20,018 nt of DNA from Candidatus Thorarchaeota archaeon (GCA_048882505.1 JBHLRO010000034.1:9451-29468); one strand, 5' to 3'. Counted from the stretch's first letter, positions 6,843 to 20,018 are shown. The notes: a model not told the origin generated them from the sequence alone. Made by a program: numbers and translations.

Positions 6843-9434
6843 TCACTCTCCAGTTGGACTATTTTGGTTAAAATACAAATCGTTTATCTGATCATCTAAT
6901 TCCATCAATAATTGCTGGAATTGTGCCTCTAATTCGTTTTTTACATCATGATTTGATTTATTGATATGAAGTGTTCTATTCCGCTCAATTTTTTCCACGA
7001 TCTCTTTAATTATAATCTGATTCTTTTTATCGACATTTGGAATCGGTAATTTCCTTAAATCATTTGGTTGGAAATAATTTTCTTGTCTATGAGTCCTTAT
7101 GGAGTTGAGGTAACTATTAGCAAATGATGAATTAATGATGCCAAGAATGTAGCGTAGATCAAAATCTAATGAAAGAGGTTTTCCACGTAGTATGGCTTCT
7201 TTTACTGCTCTTCTATTCAGAACCCTTGTTTTTATACCTACTAAATCATGATAAGGTTTCAATATCATAATGGAGTGATTACACCATAGACTCCCACATT
7301 CATCGTATATTCCTCTACCTCCAATCGCACCAACCATAATTTTAGGGGAGTCATACAGCTCCGGAAATGTAGGTCGTCTTATCTGTCTTGGAACTCGATC
7401 CGTACCATATTCCAAGAACTTTACATCGTTTATCCTAAATTTGTCAATATATTTGTTTTCAATATACTTTTTATTGAAGAATCTTCCTCTTTTATCCCTT
7501 ATTAGATCATTCTTTTTGAATTTTCCTTTAAACCGCTTTTCATCACTGTTTAGAACCATACCAACGCTTATATAGAATATACGACCAAGAGGAATAGTTT
7601 CTGCAGCGAATTTTCTTACATTGACCATCGAATAATACTTTTTTCGAAACAGTCTCTCGCCATAGTCTTCTATTTTTACTTTCTCAATTTTTTCAACTTC
7701 ACCAAGGTTTTTGTAGAAGACACGTTTTGTGATATGATCAACATTTCGATTTCTGTTTCTGAGCGACACAATGATGTTGCTTACATTCATAGTTTCAAAA
7801 ATCTGAATTCCTGAAAAAAAGCAAATTTCAAAGAGTTCTTTTGTCAGAAGGTATTTTCTCATCTTTGATGCATAATTTGAAGTGGAGAATCCATCTGAAA
7901 TAATGAATGACATAATTCCATTAGGTTTTAGAAGTTTTATACCCAATTCTAAGAACGGTATAAACAGATCCCATTTTTGCGTTAGTAGAGAAAAATTCCT
8001 CTCTATTATTCTTCTATATTCTTGATAAACTAAGTCTTGATAATCAGCCCGAACATAGGGGGGATTGCCAATTATTATATCGAATCCTCCATCCGTAGCC
8101 TGTAATATCTCAGGAAATTCCAGTGTCCAATGGAAAGGATGGAATTTTTCATGGAATTGCCTGGGAGTATATTTCTCATAAATATCCCGGAACTCTGGCT
8201 TTTCCAATAGCATTTGTGTAAAAACATCGTTTAATTCACGGGATTTCTTATTGATTCTTTCTCCTGCGTTAACAGTTTGATATCCAATCTTTTGTTCATT
8301 CTTTCTATTTTGTTGCATTCGTTCTTTCTTGATCCTAACTATAGGATTATCCCTGAAATCCATTACTGGTCTACTAGATCTCTCATAGATTCCTAATAAT
8401 GAATCTCCACATCTATAATAGAAATAAATGTCTGGTAACTGATTGATTTCTTCCAAAGACGTAACTTTGGCTATAACAGCCAAAATCAATCTCATTTGGC
8501 ACGTTTCTATAGCTTCTGGTGAAATATCAACTCCAAATAGGTTGTTTCTGATAATAAATTTCCTAATATTTTCCCCATTGATTTCGTGTTTTTCTTTCAA
8601 AAGCTTGTTGTCAGTGTTTGCAAACCTACTGTAAATATCTTCAAGAAGAAAAAGCATTTTTACCAGAAAATCACCGCTCCCCACTGCCGGATCTAGAATC
8701 TTTATTGATGTTATAAGGTTAAGTATTTGAGACTGTTTCTTTTCATCATTTTCCTTTAATACGCTGTTGAATGTCGAATAATTAAGATTTAACGTTTTAT
8801 TAATGTATTCAATAAGCGTTGTTTTACACATTTTTGAAGTAATTTGATTTGGAGTATAAATTGCCCCAGCTGCTTTTTGATCTAAACTTCTCTCCAAAAT
8901 ATAACTCAAAATATTCGGTTTTAACCTGCTGACGTCCCCAATTTTTTCGTTAATGGTCCAAGACGTGCTTTCTAACAAATTAAGTACTGGTAACGAGGTA
9001 ATCGATCTGTTTAGAGGATAATCCATCTCTTTATAAAAAACAGAATTGGAAATTTCTATTGTTTCCCTGTAGATAAGCTCTTCTTTTGCTGGTAGAAAAA
9101 TATCAATATTTAAATATGGAATTTTTCCCAATAATCCATTAATGGATTTTTTTCTGTCATTAAAGGCCTTTGAAAGCCCTTCAAAGAATAATAAGCTTAA
9201 GAATTCCTTGAAATAGTTATTGTCTTTGTTTTTGATAAAATTCGATATCAGATAGTTAAAATCATTATCTAAGAAACCCCTTGTCTGTAAAAACCATAGA
9301 AACATCAATCGTTTCAAAATGATCTGTGCATATCTGTCGCTTTGATCGGAATCAGGGAAACCTCTAATATTCTTTTTCAAATATTTTCGTGAAATCACAT
9401 AGAAATCATAAAATTCCTTTAGAATGTCCTGCAA
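6843..9434 (-). CDS. Eco57I/type IIG-like N6-adenine DNA methyltransferase with TaqI_C-like specificity region; no nuclease domain evident
   Basis: Motif I (ILDPAVGSGDFL), motif IV (DIIIGNPPYV), helical region RLMFLWFLQTRGFL...IPYLN, and C-terminal YILGIINSS...LRKLPIP. TTG start. Confidence 0.88.
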   Translation of the reverse strand: MQDILKEFYDFYVISRKYLKKNIRGFPDSDQSDRYAQIILKRLMFLWFLQTRGFLDNDFNYLISNFIKNKDNNYFKEFLSLLFFEGLSKAFNDRKKSINGLLGKIPYLNIDIFLPAKEELIYRETIEISNSVFYKEMDYPLNRSITSLPVLNLLESTSWTINEKIGDVSRLKPNILSYILERSLDQKAAGAIYTPNQITSKMCKTTLIEYINKTLNLNYSTFNSVLKENDEKKQSQILNLITSIKILDPAVGSGDFLVKMLFLLEDIYSRFANTDNKLLKEKHEINGENIRKFIIRNNLFGVDISPEAIETCQMRLILAVIAKVTSLEEINQLPDIYFYYRCGDSLLGIYERSSRPVMDFRDNPIVRIKKERMQQNRKNEQKIGYQTVNAGERINKKSRELNDVFTQMLLEKPEFRDIYEKYTPRQFHEKFHPFHWTLEFPEILQATDGGFDIIIGNPPYVRADYQDLVYQEYRRIIERNFSLLTQKWDLFIPFLELGIKLLKPNGIMSFIISDGFSTSNYASKMRKYLLTKELFEICFFSGIQIFETMNVSNIIVSLRNRNRNVDHITKRVFYKNLGEVEKIEKVKIEDYGERLFRKKYYSMVNVRKFAAETIPLGRIFYISVGMVLNSDEKRFKGKFKKNDLIRDKRGRFFNKKYIENKYIDKFRINDVKFLEYGTDRVPRQIRRPTFPELYDSPKIMVGAIGGRGIYDECGSLWCNHSIMILKPYHDLVGIKTRVLNRRAVKEAILRGKPLSLDFDLRYILGIINSSFANSYLNSIRTHRQENYFQPNDLRKLPIPNVDKKNQIIIKEIVEKIERNRTLHINKSNHDVKNELEAQFQQLLMELDDQINDLYFNQNSPTGE

Positions 9435-11858: not shown

Positions 11859-12464
11859 TTGGCAAGTGGCGTCTTGGAACTGGAAATGAGTAGAAAGCAT
11901 CAGAATTTATCTAGTGAGAAACGGGTTCTTCCAGGTGACAAGATCGCTGTTATTGAGGAATTCCTACCTGATGAAACATGTTATGAACAAGACGGTAGTA
12001 TTTATTCATCGGTAATAGGACGTGTGGTCACAGATCCACAAAAACACAAAATTTCTGTAGCCCCTGACAAGCAATATCAAACCATCAAGCCGGGAGACGT
12101 CGGAATTGGACGCATCGAATTTGTTAAGAACAAAATGGCATCTGTGGAAATCTATCGCCTAGATGGGCGCGAGACCACCCCTCCGATAAAGGCTAGTCTG
12201 TACATTTGGGAAGTCTCTCGGAGTTTCGTAAAGAATATGTATGAAGTGGTTCGGCCGGGAGACTGGGTGCGCTGCCGTCTGATTAGAACCGATAGTGTTG
12301 TTGATGTAGGATTGGTAGGTGAGGGATTAGGGGTAATTCAAGCATTTTGCAATCATTGCGGATCTGAACTTGAATTTAAACGCCGAAATACCTTGAAATG
12401 TCCAAATTGTGAATTAATTCAACCCCGAATCACATCTAGACAATACGGACGACTTGTCAGATAG
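11859..12464 (+). CDS. csl4: Exosome complex RNA-binding protein Csl4
   Basis: N-terminal VLPGDKIAVIEEF, S1 domain (RPGDWVRCR) and C-terminal zinc ribbon (AFCNHCG...KCPNCELIQPR). True start may be ATG 11886. Confidence 0.93.
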   Translation: MASGVLELEMSRKHQNLSSEKRVLPGDKIAVIEEFLPDETCYEQDGSIYSSVIGRVVTDPQKHKISVAPDKQYQTIKPGDVGIGRIEFVKNKMASVEIYRLDGRETTPPIKASLYIWEVSRSFVKNMYEVVRPGDWVRCRLIRTDSVVDVGLVGEGLGVIQAFCNHCGSELEFKRRNTLKCPNCELIQPRITSRQYGRLVR

Positions 12465-12467
12465 ATA

Positions 12468-13310
12468 TTGGGGCCCTCAAGAATGCGGCCAGATGATAAG
12501 CGGATCTGGGAGTCTTATGATAAAAAGACGGACTCTTGGAGAAAACGAAGGAAACGCACAGAGGATAACCAAACATTAAATGCGGTACTCGATAAGAGTA
12601 CCTCTATCGAATTAGAACGTCTCCAAGCCAAGGAGTTTCTAGGCCCGATAACTGGAACCATAGCTTCTGGCAAAGAAGCAGGGGTTTTTTTGGCGGAGCT
12701 TGGTAAGGAGGGCAAGAAACACTGCAGATCGCTTTCCATTGAATCCCCAGTCGTAGTCAAGATCTATCGAACCCGTACTCTCAACTTTAAGCGAATTTCT
12801 GACTATATTACTGGAGACGTCCGTTTTCAACGGCATAGTAAAAAGAGTTGGAAAATTATAAAATTATGGGCGGAAAAAGAATTTCGAAATCTTCAGCGTA
12901 GCGATCAAGCAGGAGTGAGCGTTCCTCGGCCTATTTTAGTAAAACGAAACATTCTTATAATGGAGCTAATTGGAAAAGAAGGAAAACCTTCCCCCCTGTT
13001 AAAAAGAACTCCTGCTGCATTTACAGAAGACACATTGACCCAAATTCTCACACAAATGAAAAGTCTGTTCCTTAAAGCGAAACTAATTCATGCAGATCTT
13101 TCCCCATTTAACATTTTAATGAAGGAAACAAGGCCATATTTTATCGACATGGGTCAAAGCGTCCTTATCTCTCACCCAAAAGCAAGAGAATTTCTCGAGC
13201 GTGATTTAGAAAACGTTCTCTCCACATTTTCCCTTAAAGGGGTTGATGGTCCCTCTACTAATACCATACTTGAGGAATTGTTAAGTACCGTTAACGATGA
13301 GCTTGCTTAA
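12468..13310 (+). CDS. rio1: RIO1 family atypical Ser/Thr kinase/ATPase
   Basis: ASGKEAGVF, VVKIYR, YITGDVRF loop, KEFRNL, LIHADLSPFNIL and IDMGQSV. No N-terminal winged helix, so not Rio2. True start may be ATG 12483. Confidence 0.93.
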   Translation: MGPSRMRPDDKRIWESYDKKTDSWRKRRKRTEDNQTLNAVLDKSTSIELERLQAKEFLGPITGTIASGKEAGVFLAELGKEGKKHCRSLSIESPVVVKIYRTRTLNFKRISDYITGDVRFQRHSKKSWKIIKLWAEKEFRNLQRSDQAGVSVPRPILVKRNILIMELIGKEGKPSPLLKRTPAAFTEDTLTQILTQMKSLFLKAKLIHADLSPFNILMKETRPYFIDMGQSVLISHPKAREFLERDLENVLSTFSLKGVDGPSTNTILEELLSTVNDELA

Positions 13311-13327
13311 TAGGAGCAATATTTTAA

Positions 13328-13894
13328 ATGGTCATAGAATGTCACGTGAAGATACCACGGAGTCGGATTGGAGTGTTGATTGGGAGAAAAGGGGAGGTTA
13401 AGGAGGAATTGGAATCCATAACGAAGGTGGTAATCCAAGTCGATAGTGGCGAGGGATCGGTCCATATATTGGCAACAGAGAACACTCCAGACCCTATTTT
13501 GGTATGGACCGTTCGTGATATTGTACGCGCTATTGGAAGGGGATTTAGTCCTTCGGCCGCATTTAATCTTTTGGATGATGATATTTTTTTGGAAACAATT
13601 GATTTAGAAGGTTCAAAAAGCAATATAAAACGCTTAAAATCTCGAATTATTGGAGAAAAAGGAAAAGCAAAAAGAATGATTGAAACCAGCACCGAAACTG
13701 CTGTTTCAGTTTTTGGAAATCAGGTTTCTATTATCGGGGAGTTGACAGAAATTCAGCACGCCCGTGAGGCCATCCAACACCTTATTCAAGGATCGAAACA
13801 TAGCACGGTTTTTCGTTATTTGGAACAGCTACGGTTCCGATCTAAGTCCGAACCTTTAAGGATTTGGAAAGACAAACCTCGCAACTCCGATTGA
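13328..13894 (+). CDS. dim2: KH-domain SSU biogenesis factor Dim2/Pno1
   Basis: Two KH GxxG loops (IGVLIGRKGE, RIIGEKGK), RAIGRGFSP and GSKHSTVFRYL. Lies directly after rio1. Confidence 0.92.
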   Translation: MVIECHVKIPRSRIGVLIGRKGEVKEELESITKVVIQVDSGEGSVHILATENTPDPILVWTVRDIVRAIGRGFSPSAAFNLLDDDIFLETIDLEGSKSNIKRLKSRIIGEKGKAKRMIETSTETAVSVFGNQVSIIGELTEIQHAREAIQHLIQGSKHSTVFRYLEQLRFRSKSEPLRIWKDKPRNSD

Positions 13895-13936: not shown

Positions 13937-14041
13937 GGGCCGATAGCTCAGCTTGGTAGAGCGCCTGGCTTGCAAGCAGATGATCGTGTGTCCTCTGTCC
14001 AAGAACCCCGGAGGTCGTGGGTTCGAGTCCCACTCGGTCCA
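13937..14041 (+). tRNA. trnA: tRNA-Ala(UGC) with a 31-nt intron at 37/38 (13975-14005)
   Basis: Acceptor stem GGGCCGA/TCGGTCC with G3-U70 and discriminator A. D arm GCTC/GAGC, T arm GTGGG-TTCGAGT-CCCAC, anticodon TGC at 13971-13973. Bulge-helix-bulge: CTTG (13969-72) pairs with CAAG (14000-03), with 3-nt bulges CAA and AAC. CCA is not encoded. Confidence 0.93.
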
Positions 14042-14061: not shown

Positions 14062-14280
14062 TTAAACTAAGGATCTTACTAAAGAAAAGAGGGAACCCAA
14101 TTTCCTGAGGAGTTCATCTGCATTAACTAGAAGCCAATCTAAAACCCCAGTGACAATTGAGAGGATCAAGAGAAACCCAAAGAGACTAAGACCGATAAGA
14201 ATTCCCTCTTCAACCAATGGGGAGGCTCGTTTCTTTCTAGTGAATCTAGTGGTTACCGCTGTTAATAGACGCTTGCTCAT
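14062..14280 (-). CDS. Small type IV pilin-like (class III signal peptide) membrane protein
   Basis: Basic leader ending KKRA, then SPLVEEG followed by an ~20-residue hydrophobic helix. Start is ATG 14280 or 14298. Confidence 0.6.
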   Translation of the reverse strand: MSKRLLTAVTTRFTRKKRASPLVEEGILIGLSLFGFLLILSIVTGVLDWLLVNADELLRKLGSLFSLVRSLV

Positions 14281-14411
14281 GAATTTGGCCGATCTCATTT
14301 ATACTCAGTATATATCAACTAGATCCTCTTTTAATAACCCCAAAATCCTCTGCCAAAATCCAATGAGGATGTCAGGAAATAGAATTTGGGTAGTTAAAAC
14401 CGATATGGAGG

Positions 14412-15023
14412 ATGAAAAGATTGGTGCATCTCGTGAAATTCCTGCCACGAAAAAGTAAGAAACCATTGAAACTTGTCATTCTCGGAGAGGGAGGAGTTGG
14501 AAAAACCACGCTTTCGAAGTCTTTTACCTCAAGCTCCTTTTCTCCGGATACTAAACAGACTATTGCAGTAGAATTCCATTCCAAACTCATGTACGATCGG
14601 AGAAACCGGCAACATAAACTTCAAATCTGGGATTTTGGGGGCCAAGAGCAGTTCAAGAACATGGGGGTATTCCGAGAATTTTGTGTCGGTGCAGATGCTG
14701 CAATTTTATGTTTCGATCTTACTGATCTATCGACGCTCTTTTCGCTTCCTGAATGGTTGGAATTCATTGATCCCAAGGTTCCGAGGTTTCTCATAGGAAC
14801 TAAACTTGATTTAGCTACTCCAGAAGAAAGAAACTTCGAACTTACGCCATTTCACCGTCAATTTCAATGTTTTACTTCTTTTAAGTGCTCAGCAAAGGAT
14901 GCACAGCTGGTGTTCGAAATATTTGGGGCCATCATTGATTTCATTGATTCATTCAAGAAAGGAACACTCGATCACACCACTAATCATCATGTTAATGTTT
15001 CGAAACAGCTAATAATGTCTTAA
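14412..15023 (+). CDS. Ras-superfamily small GTPase (Rab/Roc-like)
   Basis: G1 GEGGVGKT, G2 TIAVEF, G3 WDFGGQ, G4 TKLD and G5 SAK. No C-terminal Cys motif. True start may be TTG 14421, 9 nt after GGAGG. Confidence 0.92.
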   Translation: MKRLVHLVKFLPRKSKKPLKLVILGEGGVGKTTLSKSFTSSSFSPDTKQTIAVEFHSKLMYDRRNRQHKLQIWDFGGQEQFKNMGVFREFCVGADAAILCFDLTDLSTLFSLPEWLEFIDPKVPRFLIGTKLDLATPEERNFELTPFHRQFQCFTSFKCSAKDAQLVFEIFGAIIDFIDSFKKGTLDHTTNHHVNVSKQLIMS

Positions 15024-15032
15024 GGTTACAAG

Positions 15033-15791
15033 GTGACAATATTGCAAAAGTTATTGCGAAATAGGATTACTAGTACCCAAGAAAGGATCCCGAGCGGCGT
15101 TCCTGGTTTTGATAACCTGGTCCATGGCGGGTTCCGGAAATATTCAGTCAATGTTGTAATTGCGGATCCTGGATGTGGAAAATCCACGTTTTGTTGGCAA
15201 TTCTCTGCTGAAGATAGAAACACACCCGCGCTCTACGTTTCATTAGAGCAAAATCTTGATTCCGTGCTTCGAGATTGTCATGATATTGGATTGAAACGAT
15301 TTGAGGAGAAATACAACCAAGGGAGCCTTCAATTTCAGGTGGCTTTCAGCGAAGCTTCCGATCTGACGTCAGGAGAGATCGGTCTGCGTTTTTTTATGTC
15401 AGAACTTCCAAAATATCTTTCCATCATAAAAGAGACCGCAGAAAAACATTATGGTGGAATCCGTATTGCAATTGATCCCCTCACTCCGTTGCTTCTGGAA
15501 ATTCCTGATCCTAACCAACAACGGAATGTGATAAACCGAATATTCACATCTTTGAGAAAAATTGGCACTTCTGTTATTACAATAGAAAAGGGATTTGGTG
15601 AAACTCTTGCAAGAGTCCCGCTTTTTCTATCGGATTCGATAATCGAGCTAGATCGAATAGGATTGGGCGGCGTTTACAATCGTACATTGAATGTCCGCAA
15701 ATTTCGTGGTTCAGCGCATAGCGAAACACCCCAACCCATAGGTTTTGAAAAAAACAAAGGAATCGTGGTTTATGACATTACCAATGACTAA
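15033..15791 (+). CDS. Single-domain KaiC/RAD55-like RecA-fold ATPase
   Basis: IPSGVPGFDNLVHGG, Walker A ADPGCGKS, VSLEQ, Walker B IAIDP and RTLNVRKFRGS. Confidence 0.9.
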   Translation: MTILQKLLRNRITSTQERIPSGVPGFDNLVHGGFRKYSVNVVIADPGCGKSTFCWQFSAEDRNTPALYVSLEQNLDSVLRDCHDIGLKRFEEKYNQGSLQFQVAFSEASDLTSGEIGLRFFMSELPKYLSIIKETAEKHYGGIRIAIDPLTPLLLEIPDPNQQRNVINRIFTSLRKIGTSVITIEKGFGETLARVPLFLSDSIIELDRIGLGGVYNRTLNVRKFRGSAHSETPQPIGFEKNKGIVVYDITND

Positions 15792-16212
15792 ACCACAATC
15801 TATTACTCATCACTTATCAGATGTAGTAAGTGGTATAAACAAACAAATAGAATATTTGGCAAAATTCAGTGACGTCGATGCCGCATTGCTATTTCGTTTA
15901 GATGGTAAAGTCCTAAACGCCTTTTATAGTCACCAACGTTCTCAGAGATTGCTGATAATTATTGAATGGGTAAAAAAAATAATTTCGAAAACGATGGAAC
16001 AACTGCAAAATGGGTCACAATCAGTTAAATATGATAAAGATATCGGAGAGAAAGAGCCGACTCCTGTGTATTTCTATCGTGCGGGGAATTCAAGTATTTT
16101 GGTATCTATTCTTGATCCACGGGTAAATACGGGACTTATGGAGATTGAGATGAGCCGTATTGCACGATTATTGGGATGGATAATAGACGACAAAAATCTA
16201 ACTGGTGTATGA
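15784..16212 (+). CDS. Roadblock/LC7 (MglB/LAMTOR-like) domain protein
   Basis: VDAALLFRLDGKV and AGNSSILVSILDPRVNTGLMEIEMSRIARLL fit the roadblock pattern. ATG 15784 overlaps the KaiC-like stop (ATGACTAA). Confidence 0.72.
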   Translation: MTKPQSITHHLSDVVSGINKQIEYLAKFSDVDAALLFRLDGKVLNAFYSHQRSQRLLIIIEWVKKIISKTMEQLQNGSQSVKYDKDIGEKEPTPVYFYRAGNSSILVSILDPRVNTGLMEIEMSRIARLLGWIIDDKNLTGV

Positions 16213-17594
16213 CAATGATCCAAGCCGCTGTTGGATTATGTATTGATCACGATCTAGTACAGGCGACTACAGTCGCTCTAGAACAGGCTGAAGCTGACTT
16301 AAAAAACAGGCCCGACTTGATTCTTTACTTTACGGGATCACATCTTGGAGGAGCAAAAACTTATAACAAAGCATTAGCTATATTAAAGGAAGCGTATTCT
16401 GATGTTCCGATGGCTGGATGTTCAGGATTAGGAATTGGCAATCGACAGGATTATGGCCTGAAGGGCGTAGGTCTCATGATGCTTACGGGTATAACAGCCA
16501 AATCTTATCTACTTAAACGATTTCGGATCGGAACGAAGAGAAAAACGAAAAAAATCGTCAAAAATTGTATTCGAGACAAAAAAATCGCCCAAGATAGTAA
16601 TACAAACTCAACGTTTCTTTTTTTTCCTCCAGGCGTTGGATTTCCCAAATTCGTAGCTGATATGCTGAATCACAGAATAGAAGGGATTAATCCTTTTTTC
16701 ATACTCAATTTGCCCATCTGGCGCAAATTTCCTATTTTATCTAAGATCATTGGAAAACCCGTAGAATTTCTACTTGATATTGCGGGAATAGGTATTTCTT
16801 ACTCCTCAACATGGTCTTTGTTTACCCAGCTGTACAGAAATGGAATTCATTACACTGGTACTTTTGGAGCCGATCCTCTTAACTTGTACAAGGCCTTTCA
16901 ATTCTATAACTACCGTGCCTACAAGGACTCTTTGACCTATATTTCAATTCAATCTTCCGAACTGGCCTTTGAAAGCCGAAGTGATACGGGAGCAGAAATT
17001 CTGCCAGATAAAAGATTCGATATCGACAGTTTCATTAAAGGTGGGTTTATTCCACGGATTCAAGGAAAATGGGGAGCTCATGCTTTACTTGACCTTTTTG
17101 GGATGACTGACACCCCTGACATTCTGGAAAGGTGTACTCAGTCTGCCTTCTATTATCATCCTTATCGTCCAGTTTGTGTCATTGACAGCCAACAAAAACA
17201 GAATCTATACGCATTAGCGGTAAATCCGAACCTTAAGCACGCTCTTATCACGGCTCCTAATCAGGTTGTGGAGAAATTGAAAGCAGACGATCCAGACCAT
17301 TTTCAGGCTTTTATTGCTGATCAGAGCAGAAATACGATCGAAAACCTCCTAGAAAACGCTTTGGAAGAACTTATATCCCCTAATTCAGCATTTGGCCTCT
17401 TTTTTGATTGTGGCAATCGGGCAATGGTGATCGGAGATCGATTTGACAAATATATGAAAAAATACGCTGACAGTTTAGGGGAAATCCCGTATCTGGTAGT
17501 CATTTCAGGAGGAGAAGTCAACTCACAAGATTTTCCTATTGTAAATTTTACTACTGTTTCGAACATTGGAAAGAAACTCAATTCCGTTCGTTAA
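16209..17594 (+). CDS. Stand-alone FIST domain protein (FIST_N + FIST_C)
   Basis: PDLILYF, PMAGCSG, GVGLMML, GLFFDCGNR and VVISGGEV...NFT. ATG 16209 overlaps the upstream TGA (ATGA). Confidence 0.8.
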   Translation: MTMIQAAVGLCIDHDLVQATTVALEQAEADLKNRPDLILYFTGSHLGGAKTYNKALAILKEAYSDVPMAGCSGLGIGNRQDYGLKGVGLMMLTGITAKSYLLKRFRIGTKRKTKKIVKNCIRDKKIAQDSNTNSTFLFFPPGVGFPKFVADMLNHRIEGINPFFILNLPIWRKFPILSKIIGKPVEFLLDIAGIGISYSSTWSLFTQLYRNGIHYTGTFGADPLNLYKAFQFYNYRAYKDSLTYISIQSSELAFESRSDTGAEILPDKRFDIDSFIKGGFIPRIQGKWGAHALLDLFGMTDTPDILERCTQSAFYYHPYRPVCVIDSQQKQNLYALAVNPNLKHALITAPNQVVEKLKADDPDHFQAFIADQSRNTIENLLENALEELISPNSAFGLFFDCGNRAMVIGDRFDKYMKKYADSLGEIPYLVVISGGEVNSQDFPIVNFTTVSNIGKKLNSVR

Positions 17595-19044
17595 GGCCTT
17601 TTCAAGAGAGCAAACTCAAGAATGTGGGATACAAGCCATGACGTTTATCCATTCTGTCCTAGGCGTTGATACCTTTCCCCGAGAATTACAAACCTTGAGT
17701 TTTAAATACATCACTCTCCAAATCTTAGTTTGTGGAATTTATCTGAGTAATGGATGGATTTCTCTTTATTATTTGGCCATACTCGATTCTTTTGAAGCCT
17801 TTGGATTCGTTGTTGGTTTGGGTCTAGTCTGTGGAATCATACTCGATATCCCGCTTGGATACTTAACAGATCGATTGGGACAACGGTTAGCCTATTGTGG
17901 CGCTATGTGGTGTTTGGTGATCTATTATTTGGGACTCATCGTTGCCACCAGACCATTTCACCTAGCCATTCTCGAAATAGTGGTTGGAATCTATTCTGCT
18001 CTACTTTCCGGTTCTTATAGTTCGTGGTTTATGAATTCCTGGGATATTTTAGTACGAGATTCATCGGTTCCTGATAATTTATTCAGAAAAGCCATGGGAA
18101 ATATCACGTTCGCGAAAACTCTCTGGATTATTCTAGCTACGCTGATTGGAGGAATTTTACTCCAACAAGGTTACTTCCCACCCCAAGTGATTTTTATTTC
18201 CCAGGCATCTATCGCCACCATCGGTATCATGGTTGGGTACAAATTTGTTACACTTCCTAATTCCCTCAACAAAGAAGACCTTCTGGGTGAATCTGGGAAT
18301 GTTGATAGGCGTTTGGCACCCCCAGTTTATCAACCTGAGGAAAAAATAACATTGAGTGGGCGGATAAGTCCTATCCTGTCATATCTTAGGACTAACTTTC
18401 TGATCATCACCCCTTTTCTAATAGGTTTTGCATTGTTATCATTTACTTCAGTTTCATTTCGTTCGCTAATCCTTACACCATTATTATACGAACTAGATTC
18501 CAATACGCAAGCATTCCGTCAAAATGACATTGTAATCCAATTCACCGCGGTATCGATCCTATTGGTAACCTGGACTAGAGCGTTTTCCGACATTCTTTAC
18601 GCGATATCTTGCCGTATTTCTGGACGATTAACTACCTTTGTTCGATCCCCATATTGGGGAATCATTATATTCTATTTAATCCAATTTCCTGTCATTTGGC
18701 TTCTTTATGCTGGTCTAATGATATCCAATCTGCCCAATTTCATAAAAACAACCATGATTATTTTGGTTTTTTTCTGTCAAATAATAATCGGGGGATTAGC
18801 CACAGGAATGTACTGGCAATTATACTACAAGCTTACTTCCGCTCCGACCAGAAGTACCCAAGAGTCTTTATATAATACTATAAATTTACTGGTTTCTTTA
18901 GTTGGATTTACCACTATTGGTGCAATATTAGGGACATTTGGGTTCATAGAAGCTTTAATATTCCTATTTGTATTAAGCTGCGGAGGAATTCTCCTCCTAG
19001 TCGCAGCCAAAAATCCGTTCCATTCCCCAACCCCGATTTTTTGA
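17566..19044 (+). CDS. MFS transporter
   Basis: About 12 hydrophobic segments in two halves, with MFS motif A (GYLTDRLGQR). Start is uncertain (TTG 17566 or ATG 17638). Confidence 0.85.
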   Translation: MERNSIPFVKAFSREQTQECGIQAMTFIHSVLGVDTFPRELQTLSFKYITLQILVCGIYLSNGWISLYYLAILDSFEAFGFVVGLGLVCGIILDIPLGYLTDRLGQRLAYCGAMWCLVIYYLGLIVATRPFHLAILEIVVGIYSALLSGSYSSWFMNSWDILVRDSSVPDNLFRKAMGNITFAKTLWIILATLIGGILLQQGYFPPQVIFISQASIATIGIMVGYKFVTLPNSLNKEDLLGESGNVDRRLAPPVYQPEEKITLSGRISPILSYLRTNFLIITPFLIGFALLSFTSVSFRSLILTPLLYELDSNTQAFRQNDIVIQFTAVSILLVTWTRAFSDILYAISCRISGRLTTFVRSPYWGIIIFYLIQFPVIWLLYAGLMISNLPNFIKTTMIILVFFCQIIIGGLATGMYWQLYYKLTSAPTRSTQESLYNTINLLVSLVGFTTIGAILGTFGFIEALIFLFVLSCGGILLLVAAKNPFHSPTPIF

Positions 19045-19198
19045 CTTCTACATGCTTATTTCTATAATTATCCAGAAAGCCATCGGCTGACCCACACAGA
19101 GGATTTGTTCCATTTAAGAAATCCATCTCACACGTAAGGGTAGAGTTATCACAGCTCAAAGTGTGGAAGGCGTAACCCTTATCGGGAACCCTTCAAAG

Positions 19199-19212
19199 TA
19201 AAAGTTTTTATA
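19199..19212 (+). promoter_or_regulatory. Stable-RNA-type promoter (BRE + TATA)
   Basis: A-rich BRE-like tract followed by TTTTTATA (19205-19212), about 20-25 nt before the structured RNA. Confidence 0.65.
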
Positions 19213-19228
19213 GGGGGAAAGCCCAAGC

Positions 19229-19490
19229 GAGAGCGGGCATGTTCCTCCTCTTAATGAGAGGTGCCCATCTTGAATGTTAAACACATCCCAGCAGAATAGT
19301 GAGGAGCTGGGGTGAGGCCCTCGTAGGCTGTATAACCCTCACAACCCCCCAGCGGTTAGGAAACGTAATCCCTAAAACGTGGGTTAAGCGAAGCTGGAGC
19401 CCCCAAGTCCCTGTAAATCGGGGTACTGGGAAGTACGGTTTATGTCGTACTTGGTTAACGGCGAGGTCGTCCTGGCAACGGGAGTTCTCC
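19229..19490 (+). ncRNA. Probable SRP (7S) RNA, divergent
   Basis: Manual fold: terminal helix 19229-34/19484-89; Alu-like helices 19235-40/19261-66 and 19287-92/19306-11 with loop-loop complementarity; long helix-5-like pairing 19316-37/19453-68; helix 6 capped by GAAA; helix-8-like hairpin 19391-19441. Not confirmed with a covariance model. Confidence 0.62.
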
Positions 19491-19659
19491 ATTCTAATAA
19501 CTATTCGACCAATGTCTAAACAGCGTACAGACACTAGATCCAATAACATGGGCTCATATTTTATTGCTCCCTCTTCTTCAGGAAAGAGGGTTCTATTTAC
19601 CTCCGCGATAAAAGATTCCCAAACCTTAATTCATTGTGAACTCACAAAAACTTCCGTGT

Positions 19660-20018
19660 AATCCCGTTTGATCCTGACGGAGCCCACTGCTATCGGAGTC
19701 GGATTAAGTCATGCAAGTTAAGGCGATTCGTTCGCCTGGCGAACTGCTCTGTAACACGTAGATAATCTACCCTTGGGTACGGCATAATCCCGGGAAACTG
19801 GGCATAATTCCGTATAGGTGTGCTGTTCTGGAATGGCTTCACACCCAAAGCTTCGGCGCCCGAGGATGAGTCTGCGTCCGATTATGCTTGTTGGCGGTGT
19901 CACGGACCACCAAGGCGATGATCGGTACGGGCCGTGAGAGCGGTAGCCCGGAGATGGCCACTGAGACAACGGGCCAGGCCCTATGGGGTGCAGCAGGCGC
20001 GAAAACTGGCCAATGCGC
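19660..20018 (+). rRNA. rrs: 16S rRNA, 5' part (runs off the window end)
   Basis: TTGATCCTGACGGA, GTCATGCAAGT, GTAACACGT, CTGAGACAACGG and CCCTATGGGGTGCAGCAGGCGCGAAA are conserved archaeal SSU landmarks in the correct order. Confidence 0.98.

Follow-up and report, generated by a model that had tools for sequence, protein, structure and literature searches.

A conserved KaiC-roadblock-FIST gene triad joined by genes for a Rab-like GTPase and a transporter in Hodarchaeales

Organization of the Five-Gene Cluster

The DNA analyzed here, referred to as the window, is a stretch of 20,018 nucleotides (contig C34:9451-29468) of a 4.3-Mb metagenome-assembled genome (94.6% complete), which was deposited as Candidatus Thorarchaeota archaeon (GCA_048882505.1). 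The genus of this genome belongs to the Hodarchaeales ('Ca. Hodarchaeum', B3_Heim) and is called Hod in the following. Sequence reading revealed five open reading frames (ORFs) on the same strand, with a block of RIO1, KH and tRNA genes on one side and the beginning of a 16S rRNA gene on the other. They encode a small GTPase, a KaiC-like ATPase, a roadblock-fold protein, a FIST-domain protein and a transporter of the major facilitator superfamily (MFS). The features of the cluster are as follows:

14299..14411: intergenic region between the cluster and a divergent gene for a small membrane protein (from sequence reading)
14412-15023, + strand: Rab-like small GTPase (Pfam Ras), 203 aa; stop codon TAA at 15021-15023
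15033-15791, + strand: single-domain KaiC-like ATPase (RecA superfamily), 252 aa; GTG start, 9-nt gap after the GTPase gene
15784-16212, + strand: roadblock-fold protein, 142 aa; ATG at 15784, stop codon TGA at 16210-16212
16209-17594, + strand: FIST-domain protein (FIST_N and FIST_C), 461 aa; ATG at 16209
17638-19044, + strand: MFS transporter, divergent member of MFS_1, 468 aa; 43-nt gap after the FIST gene

The stop codon of the KaiC gene (TAA, 15789-15791) lies behind the roadblock start codon (ATG 15784), resulting in an 8-nt overlap (ATGACTAA), and the roadblock stop codon (TGA, 16210-16212) shares 4 nt (ATGA) with the region starting at the FIST ATG 16209. Five co-directional genes with a 9-nt gap and these two overlaps had been described in the initial annotation and were borne out by sequence reading. 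The same applies to the MFS gene, for which a close or overlapping start had been proposed: ATG 17638 leaves the 43-nt gap, while TTG 17566 would create a 29-nt overlap with the FIST gene. Since MFS orthologues align from residue 1 of the form beginning at ATG 17638, this start is favored. Alternative start codons were also found for the first two genes. A TTG at 14421, with GGAGG 9 nt ahead, is suggested by orthologue alignments and possibly represents the true start of the GTPase gene. Alignments further suggest that the KaiC gene starts slightly later, at TTG 15042, a position which fits the MQKLL N-terminus of the orthologues and is closely preceded by AGGTGA. Within the cluster, only the intergenic region 14299..14411 is big enough for a promoter; it contains AT-rich TATA-like stretches and would be the place of a putative promoter. 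A T-run is found at the stop codon of the MFS gene.

Family Assignment of the Encoded Proteins

The GTPase was assigned to the Ras family (PF00071, 4.5e-28, 98 bits) and also matched the NCBIfam model small_GTP. Its motifs are intact, namely G1 (GEGGVGKT), G3 (WDFGGQ), G4 (TKLD, with Thr in place of the usual Asn of NKxD) and G5 (SAK), and its nearest relatives in the PDB are Rab12, Rab30, Rab43 and Rab7. As neither the protein nor its orthologues carry a C-terminal Cys, i.e., the prenylation motif of true Rabs, the term "Rab-like" denotes resemblance only. The protein differs from the MglA family, in which G3 lacks the conserved Asp (PMC4316618), since this residue is kept (WDFGGQ). Nor does it resemble Rag/Gtr proteins: it is single-domain, has no C-terminal roadblock domain and reached 17.3 bits with the Gtr1_RagA model (cut-off 22). 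This agrees with the initial annotation, which had drawn an analogy to the Rag-Ragulator system without claiming homology.

The KaiC-like protein matched PF06745 with 1.3e-31 (110 bits) and KaiC in the PDB with 2.4e-33. Its Walker A motif reads GCGKST, and the catalytic set (G47, G49, K50, T52, E72, and D148), which includes the catalytic Glu as well as the Asp of Walker B, is invariant in 14 orthologues (alignment A3). Circadian KaiC proteins comprise two tandem domains and about 500 aa and act with KaiA/KaiB; the protein from the window has one domain and 252 aa, and the NCBIfam clock models scored far below their cut-offs.

For the roadblock-position protein no match was obtained in Pfam or NCBIfam. 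The gathering score of Robl_LC7 (PF03259) was not reached, and this model matched at all in only three of the 19 orthologues (best E-value 0.0045). A profile of these 19 sequences, however, matched the Thorarchaeota roadblock structure 7f8m with 1.7e-6. In addition, the AlphaFold2 (AF2) model (pLDDT 86.7) shows the alpha-beta-beta-alpha-beta-beta-beta-alpha order of the roadblock fold and gave Foldseek probabilities of 1.00 to 7f8m, MglB (6hjm/1j3w) and Roadblock3 of MK-D1 (9jue). The 142-aa protein is therefore identified as a roadblock protein by its predicted structure and by profile, not by Pfam.

The FIST protein exceeded the cut-offs of FIST_N (30.2 bits, cut-off 23.2) and, narrowly, of FIST_C (28.8 bits, cut-off 28.5). 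It contains a family-specific insert at about residues 140-230, and the best Foldseek match of its AF2 model (pLDDT 77) was the FIST protein FBXO22 (probability 0.99). There is no His among the 26 invariant columns of the FIST alignment A2, in which the haem-ligating residues of NosP were not compared. The MFS protein matched MFS_1 with 45 bits (cut-off 33.4) over residues 32-423, covering both six-helix halves, and had only generic MFS neighbors in the Atlas. Searches of PDB sequences with the FIST and MFS proteins yielded nothing useful. Taken together, the GTPase, KaiC, FIST and MFS families named initially were recovered by Pfam and the roadblock family by profile and fold, so that the first observation was confirmed in every detail.

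The KaiC-Roadblock-FIST Triad in Euryarchaeota and in Asgard Archaea

The roadblock family of the cluster is narrow: a full-library profile search among 1.84 billion proteins found 52 representatives at E ≤ 1e-3. Precomputed Pfam annotation assigns the label PF27410 ("AF0774") to eight representatives that were detected with profile A1, made from the orthologues, and via these relatives the roadblock protein from the window is probably a member of the AF0774 family. Wherever the DNA of AF0774-type relatives was long enough, a KaiC gene was found to end on the roadblock start. In the euryarchaeal genome GCA_001914405.1, a KaiC gene is followed by an AF0774 gene and then by a gene for a 452-aa protein of the AF0772_C family (PF27411). 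The latter is a divergent FIST protein (FIST_N 4.3e-4; hhalign 72% against the Asgard FIST alignment), and the Asgard FIST hidden Markov model (HMM) scores euryarchaeal FIST-like relatives down to 1e-10.

In this euryarchaeal phylum, 301 genomes were sampled and the 30 best roadblock loci were taken. KaiC is encoded directly upstream of the roadblock gene in 23 of these 30 best loci, and in at least 18 of them the gene directly downstream is FIST-like. All 17 loci which were extended to 8-12 kb contain both KaiC and a FIST-like gene. The full KaiC(-KaiC)-roadblock-FIST order was recognized with the roadblock HMM in ten of the 17, and six more have an ORF of 116-125 aa in the roadblock position. 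Neither a GTPase nor an MFS gene of the window type was found beside the triad in any of the 17 extended loci. The ordered KaiC-roadblock-FIST triad is thus not Asgard-specific but conserved from the euryarchaeal phylum to Asgard archaea.

The euryarchaeal and Hod clusters are alike in their three families, their gene order and their tight coupling, with the euryarchaeal KaiC and AF0774-type genes overlapping by 4 nt and the euryarchaeal FIST-like protein comprising about 450 aa. They differ in that the Hod operon adds the small GTPase and the MFS protein, whereas euryarchaeal loci often carry two to three tandem KaiC paralogues; one or two extra copies precede the triad (L272, L273, L275-L280). 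Furthermore, euryarchaeal KaiC proteins are about 290-305 aa long and have a C-terminal tail, which is lacking in the 252-aa Hod protein. Judging from the Pfam family names, AF0772 and AF0774 of Archaeoglobus fulgidus are presumably members of the triad families; no paper naming either protein was found.

Distribution of the Cluster Within Asgard Archaea

For comparison within Asgard archaea, 20 Hod loci were retrieved, 19 of which were informative for cluster counts. The KaiC-roadblock-FIST order is intact in 18 of the 19 informative loci, and FIST-MFS in all 19 loci reaching that far, with a spacing of 1-49 nt. The GTPase gene is in place in 15 of the 19. In one genome (G015), KaiC and GTPase are both absent at the cluster locus. 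Preservation of the same gene order across the species of the genus, at protein identities of 40-80%, is far beyond chance. As the genes are co-directional, separated by gaps too short for promoters and kept together across species, the five-gene cluster is, by its gene arrangement, a real, tightly packed and conserved operon.

A second group carrying the cluster are the Heimdallarchaeaceae ('Ca. Heimdallarchaeum aukensis/endolithica', AB_125), called Heimdall here. A FIST orthologue is present in all 21 other genomes of the Hod genus, in 28 of 31 Heimdallarchaeaceae and in one of 12 genomes of a third family. When proteins were searched widely with the FIST profile, all those returned were of the Hodarchaeales and Heimdall type, which is an effect of the word index of this search. 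In Heimdallarchaeaceae the order is KaiC (310 aa)-roadblock (119 aa)-FIST-GTPase, again tight and with overlaps, at 21-38% identity to Hod, and no MFS or other transporter gene was found in these clusters. They are flanked by a divergent gene for an E3-UFM1-ligase-like/PCI protein (L056 2408-3166, −); behind them lies a conserved ORF of about 105 aa without annotation (L056 6526-6846, +) and then the gene for either EF-1alpha or ribosomal protein P0. KaiC-roadblock-FIST without an adjoining GTPase also occurs in G397, a distant Asgard genome of a third lineage, where the next genes are a canonical MFS_1 gene that differs from the one in the window and a LarA-like gene. The MFS type found in the window is confined to the Hodarchaeales genus.

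The initial annotation had proposed that all five genes form one operon and had named neighborhood conservation across Asgard genomes as a check. The tight, conserved cluster was found; it is not indivisible, as its stable core consists of KaiC, roadblock and FIST, present in Hod, Heimdallarchaeaceae and G397, while GTPase and MFS are lineage-specific, the former being variable and the latter, in the type seen here, restricted to the Hod genus.

Other Asgard families contain a cluster without KaiC or small GTPase, in which genes for a roadblock protein, a roadblock-fusion protein of about 320 aa, a gelsolin-like protein, FIST, a LuxE-like and a LuxC-like protein occur together (L095/L231, also L087, L092-L094, L097, L103). 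The idea that the 320-aa protein might be a degenerate KaiC was rejected, as its N-terminus is roadblock-like and no KaiC match was obtained. In one of these genomes, a gene for a 934-aa LRR-Roc GTPase lies divergently upstream.

The GTPase and Its Links to Roadblock and KaiC Proteins

The GTPase gene is found ahead of KaiC in Hod and behind FIST in Heimdall. This gene is an addition specific to Heimdallarchaeia, dispensable in some cases, and the unstable member of the cluster. A maximum-likelihood tree was calculated by a quick search from 76 GTPase domains (43 of the window genome, 19 of a Heimdallarchaeum genome, and representative cluster copies). Among the roughly 60 paralogues herein, the cluster GTPases of Hod and Heimdall share a single clade with a close Hod paralogue, GTPase2 (SH-aLRT 97), and within it the Hod cluster GTPase groups with GTPase2 (SH-aLRT 100).

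In 10 of 22 Hod genomes, a canonical Robl_LC7 gene (Robl2a, 3.9e-14) precedes the gene for GTPase2 at a distance of 10-50 nt, and the pair occurs in both genomes without the cluster GTPase. The unit was found at the following positions:

L198 1054-2096 (also L201-L208, L221, L228): Robl_LC7 gene followed by the GTPase2 gene

The window genome itself contains only a roadblock paralogue without GTPase at C8:75552-75929. A 138-aa ORF beside the tandem GTPase genes on C12 was rejected as a roadblock candidate (hhalign probability 0.3%). In a metagenomic protein of 337 aa (P0065; L234 5001-6014), an AF0774-type roadblock domain like that of the Heimdall cluster is fused to a Ras-family domain. In another protein, P0111, the roadblock domain is joined to two V4R domains. 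The link between roadblock and GTPase assumed in the initial annotation thereby gains comparative evidence, from the paralogue encoded behind a canonical roadblock gene and from the roadblock-Ras fusion.

A second, paralogous pair, in which an Arf-like GTPase gene precedes a KaiC gene (C11:29741-31242), has kept its order in all 19 Hod genomes holding that KaiC (window genome L166 3242-4743; relatives L170-L189). Within the window genome, GTPase and KaiC genes are further neighbors on C11, C13, and possibly C1; the group on C13 (93294-96151) is looser and consists of genes for a Ras-like GTPase, an AbrB-like protein, KaiC and LplA. Given some 43 GTPase genes in a genome of 4.3 Mb, any one gene would roughly be expected to have a GTPase gene within 1.5 kb in about 3% of cases. 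As three of four strong KaiC paralogues have a GTPase gene nearby, this association is not due to chance according to this rough estimate. In agreement with the module proposed in the initial annotation, KaiC-like proteins are thus connected both with the roadblock protein and with small GTPases.

Further Features of the Window

On the minus strand, divergent from the GTPase gene, a small ORF (14062-14298) encodes a 78-aa protein with one hydrophobic helix and no Pfam match. It shows 67-92% identity in all 18 Hod loci covering it and is better conserved than the GTPase. A tRNA gene (13937-14041, +) of 105 nt with an apparent intron was detected by Rfam (54 bits) and missed by ARAGORN. In several relatives the tRNA halves are about 30 nt closer together, indicating that presence of the intron varies within the genus. 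Genes for a Csl4/Rrp4-like protein, a RIO1 kinase and a KRR1/Pno1-like double-KH protein occupy 11859-13894 (+), and this RIO-KH-tRNA block is kept upstream of the operon across the Hod loci and thus genus-wide.

Downstream of the operon, the region 19045-20018 contains a 16S rRNA gene from 19661 onward (+; Rfam 317 bits) with a GC-rich leader (about 50% versus 40% elsewhere). The operon adjoins 16S only in the window genome and its closest relative (G016); a tie between the module and ribosome or rRNA genes was therefore rejected. The stretch of lowest GC content in the window (0.33) harbors a gene for an 863-aa restriction-modification methylase of the Eco57I/MmeI type (6843-9434, −), which is possibly a horizontally acquired island.

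Proposed Function and Alternative Explanations

We tentatively favor a reading in which an old KaiC-roadblock-FIST signaling core had a Rab-like GTPase plugged in by Heimdallarchaeia and the MFS protein added in the Hod genus. The FIST protein would serve as input, sensing a small ligand or the state of a protein, and might act via the roadblock protein, probably a dimer, on a hexameric KaiC-like ATPase. The roadblock protein would be a small adaptor, in the role which KaiB-like partners have for KaiC. The same roadblock surface could be a regulator or docking platform for the Rab-like GTPase, i.e., a GTPase-activating protein (GAP), a factor for guanine nucleotide exchange (GEF) or a scaffold, as known from MglB. 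In this way, the roadblock protein would bridge KaiC and GTPase, and the nucleotide state of KaiC would be converted into an on/off output of the GTPase. In Hodarchaeales, the transporter may either be a target under regulation or supply the solute that is sensed. In the initial annotation a signal flow had been envisaged in which transporter and FIST would deliver the input, KaiC would relay it and GTPase/roadblock would act as switch; this might be the case. A more far-reaching claim is that KaiC, the AF0774 roadblock protein as KaiB-like adaptor and FIST as input make up an undescribed three-component signaling system widespread in archaea, which was wired to a Rab-like GTPase via the roadblock protein in the archaeal lineage closest to eukaryotes; it appears rather unlikely on present evidence.

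Several observations weigh against the favored reading. The cluster GTPase is missing in G019 and G004 and decayed in G005; at its position in the latter, a 164-aa open frame (L048 7556-8050, −) retains ETKID as a remnant of G4 and has no P-loop, i.e., the gene is decaying within an otherwise intact operon. Together with the absence of an adjacent GTPase in G397 and at 17/17 extended euryarchaeal loci, this implies that the core works without it. Moreover, only the tree links the cluster GTPases of Hod and Heimdall, as reciprocal best hits between them fail, and the branches that are grouped there are long. In the P0065 fusion, the Ras domain is degenerate in its P-loop and G3 motif. FIST proteins can be protein-recognition modules, as in the case of FBXO22, and not only ligand sensors. 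Lastly, a survey of prokaryotic GTPases found none of 121 Ras-like (Rup) GTPases coupled to MglB, compared to 404 of 488 of the MglA type (PMC4316618). Since MglB coupling was found only for the MglA type in this survey, a roadblock-coupled Rab-like GTPase would be unusual outside eukaryotes. A complex prediction for KaiC, GTPase and roadblock as partners (score 0.23, mark 0.32) counts neither way.

The main rival explanation takes the same absences further and assumes that the KaiC-roadblock-FIST triad alone is the functional unit, with GTPase and MFS being lineage-specific neighbors which are co-transcribed at most and have no contact to it. Triads without GTPase in all extended euryarchaeal loci and in G397, intact KaiC-roadblock-FIST-MFS in the three Hod species in which the GTPase was lost, relocated or decayed, and the failed reciprocal best hits all speak for it. 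Nevertheless, we consider it unlikely, as two orders of Heimdallarchaeia have one GTPase subfamily joined to the triad, with a different gene order in each, the paralogue of this GTPase is paired with another roadblock gene, a roadblock-Ras fusion exists for the cluster roadblock family, and the intergenic gaps are too small for independent promoters. It is somewhat more doubtful still that the module is centered on the transporter, with the MFS protein (as transceptor or solute supplier) and FIST forming the input of a nutrient-sensing system analogous to transporter-Ragulator-Rag, whose cytoplasmic proteins would regulate the transporter or report its substrate. The 1-49 nt spacing of FIST and MFS in 19/19 Hod loci would fit such a system, as would the unrelated MFS_1 gene behind FIST in G397, a possible second independent recruitment of a transporter. 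However, transporters are absent from Heimdallarchaeaceae clusters and from the neighborhoods of euryarchaeal triads, so the transporter is not essential to the core, and homology to Rag or LAMTOR is lacking (Gtr1_RagA below its cut-off, no C-terminal roadblock domain in the GTPase).

Improbable, too, is an ATP-driven maturation or enzymatic system, in which the FIST-like protein would be an enzyme or a client of the KaiC-like ATPase and the roadblock protein an adaptor. After FBXO22, the next matches of the FIST model were cyclic-amide hydrolases of the Toblerone fold, yet these matches are weak (probability ≤0.87, TM ~0.25). In other Asgard families FIST is followed by LuxE/LuxC-like acyl-activating and reducing enzymes, and a LarA-like gene is near in G397. 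On the other hand, the known roles of FIST domains are confined to sensing and recognition, no catalytic residues were identified, and switches are where a pairing with a small GTPase and roadblock proteins is typically seen. That the operon is a direct homologue or precursor, in archaea, of Rag-Ragulator amino-acid sensing is already disfavored and seems very improbable, although Asgard lineages closest to eukaryotes carry the operon and the roadblock model had Ragulator subunits (5y3a) among its weaker matches by fold: the GTPase is Rab-like, single-domain and without the C-terminal roadblock domain of Rags, the nearest relatives of the roadblock protein are prokaryotic (AF0774 family, MglB, and Thorarchaeota roadblock), and the core triad is common to Euryarchaeota.

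Comparison With Known Systems and Implications

In MglA/MglB systems of Myxococcus and Thermus, a small Ras-superfamily GTPase is likewise encoded with a roadblock-fold protein, MglB was among the best matches of the roadblock model, and the Hod Robl2a-GTPase2 pair has the MglB-MglA gene order. In contrast, the GTPase from the window is Rab/Rup-like and keeps the Asp of G3 (WDxGGQ), and Mgl systems have no KaiC and FIST partners. The actinobacterial conservon CvnA-D is similarly a signaling operon of a sensor, a roadblock/LC7 protein and a small GTPase (PMC4316618), but it has a membrane histidine kinase as sensor and a GTPase of MglA group 2; it includes a DUF742 protein and lacks KaiC and FIST. 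A passage in PMC5847659 cites the idea of KaiC-like proteins as archaeal signaling hubs. With such hubs and with cyanobacterial KaiABC the cluster shares a KaiC-family ATPase with intact catalytic motifs, small partners and a sensory-type domain, whereas KaiC of the KaiABC clock is double-domain and the ATPase described here is single-domain, with neither KaiA nor KaiB.

A further Asgard operon, encoding a LAMTOR1-like roadblock protein, a Rab-like GTPase and a DENN protein, was described by Liu et al. (10.1101/2020.10.19.343400). It also combines a roadblock-superfamily protein with a Rab-like and not a Rag-like GTPase, and differs in having DENN in place of KaiC and FIST and in its roadblock family. 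To Rag-Ragulator(LAMTOR)-SLC38A9 the likeness is one of logic only, as a transporter, roadblock-fold proteins and a small GTPase are involved in both. Beyond folds there is no homology; Rags carry their own C-terminal roadblock domain, and KaiC and FIST are absent from that system.

The operon consists of known signaling parts assembled on an old, uncharacterized archaeal triad. If the more far-reaching claim made above is true, the wiring to the GTPase would represent an early case of roadblock-fold regulation of eukaryote-type GTPases other than MglA, a logic found later in Ragulator/LAMTOR and in longin/roadblock GEFs and GAPs. Asgard genomes encode dozens of eukaryote-like small GTPases (43 ORFs with GTPase domains in the window genome) as well as many roadblock and longin proteins. 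Most of their GTPase and roadblock genes lie outside operons (Liu et al.; PMC10933270), and in MK-D1 the GTPase genes in general do not share operons with roadblock genes (Tran et al.). As such genes are rarely found in operons, regulators cannot be matched to GTPases (PMC10933270). The cluster, the Robl2a-GTPase2 pairs and the roadblock-Ras fusion name specific candidate partners for assays in the archaea closest to eukaryotes. In addition, an unstudied KaiC-roadblock-FIST triad common to Euryarchaeota and Asgard archaea is exposed, which may be open to genetics if a tractable euryarchaeon carries it.

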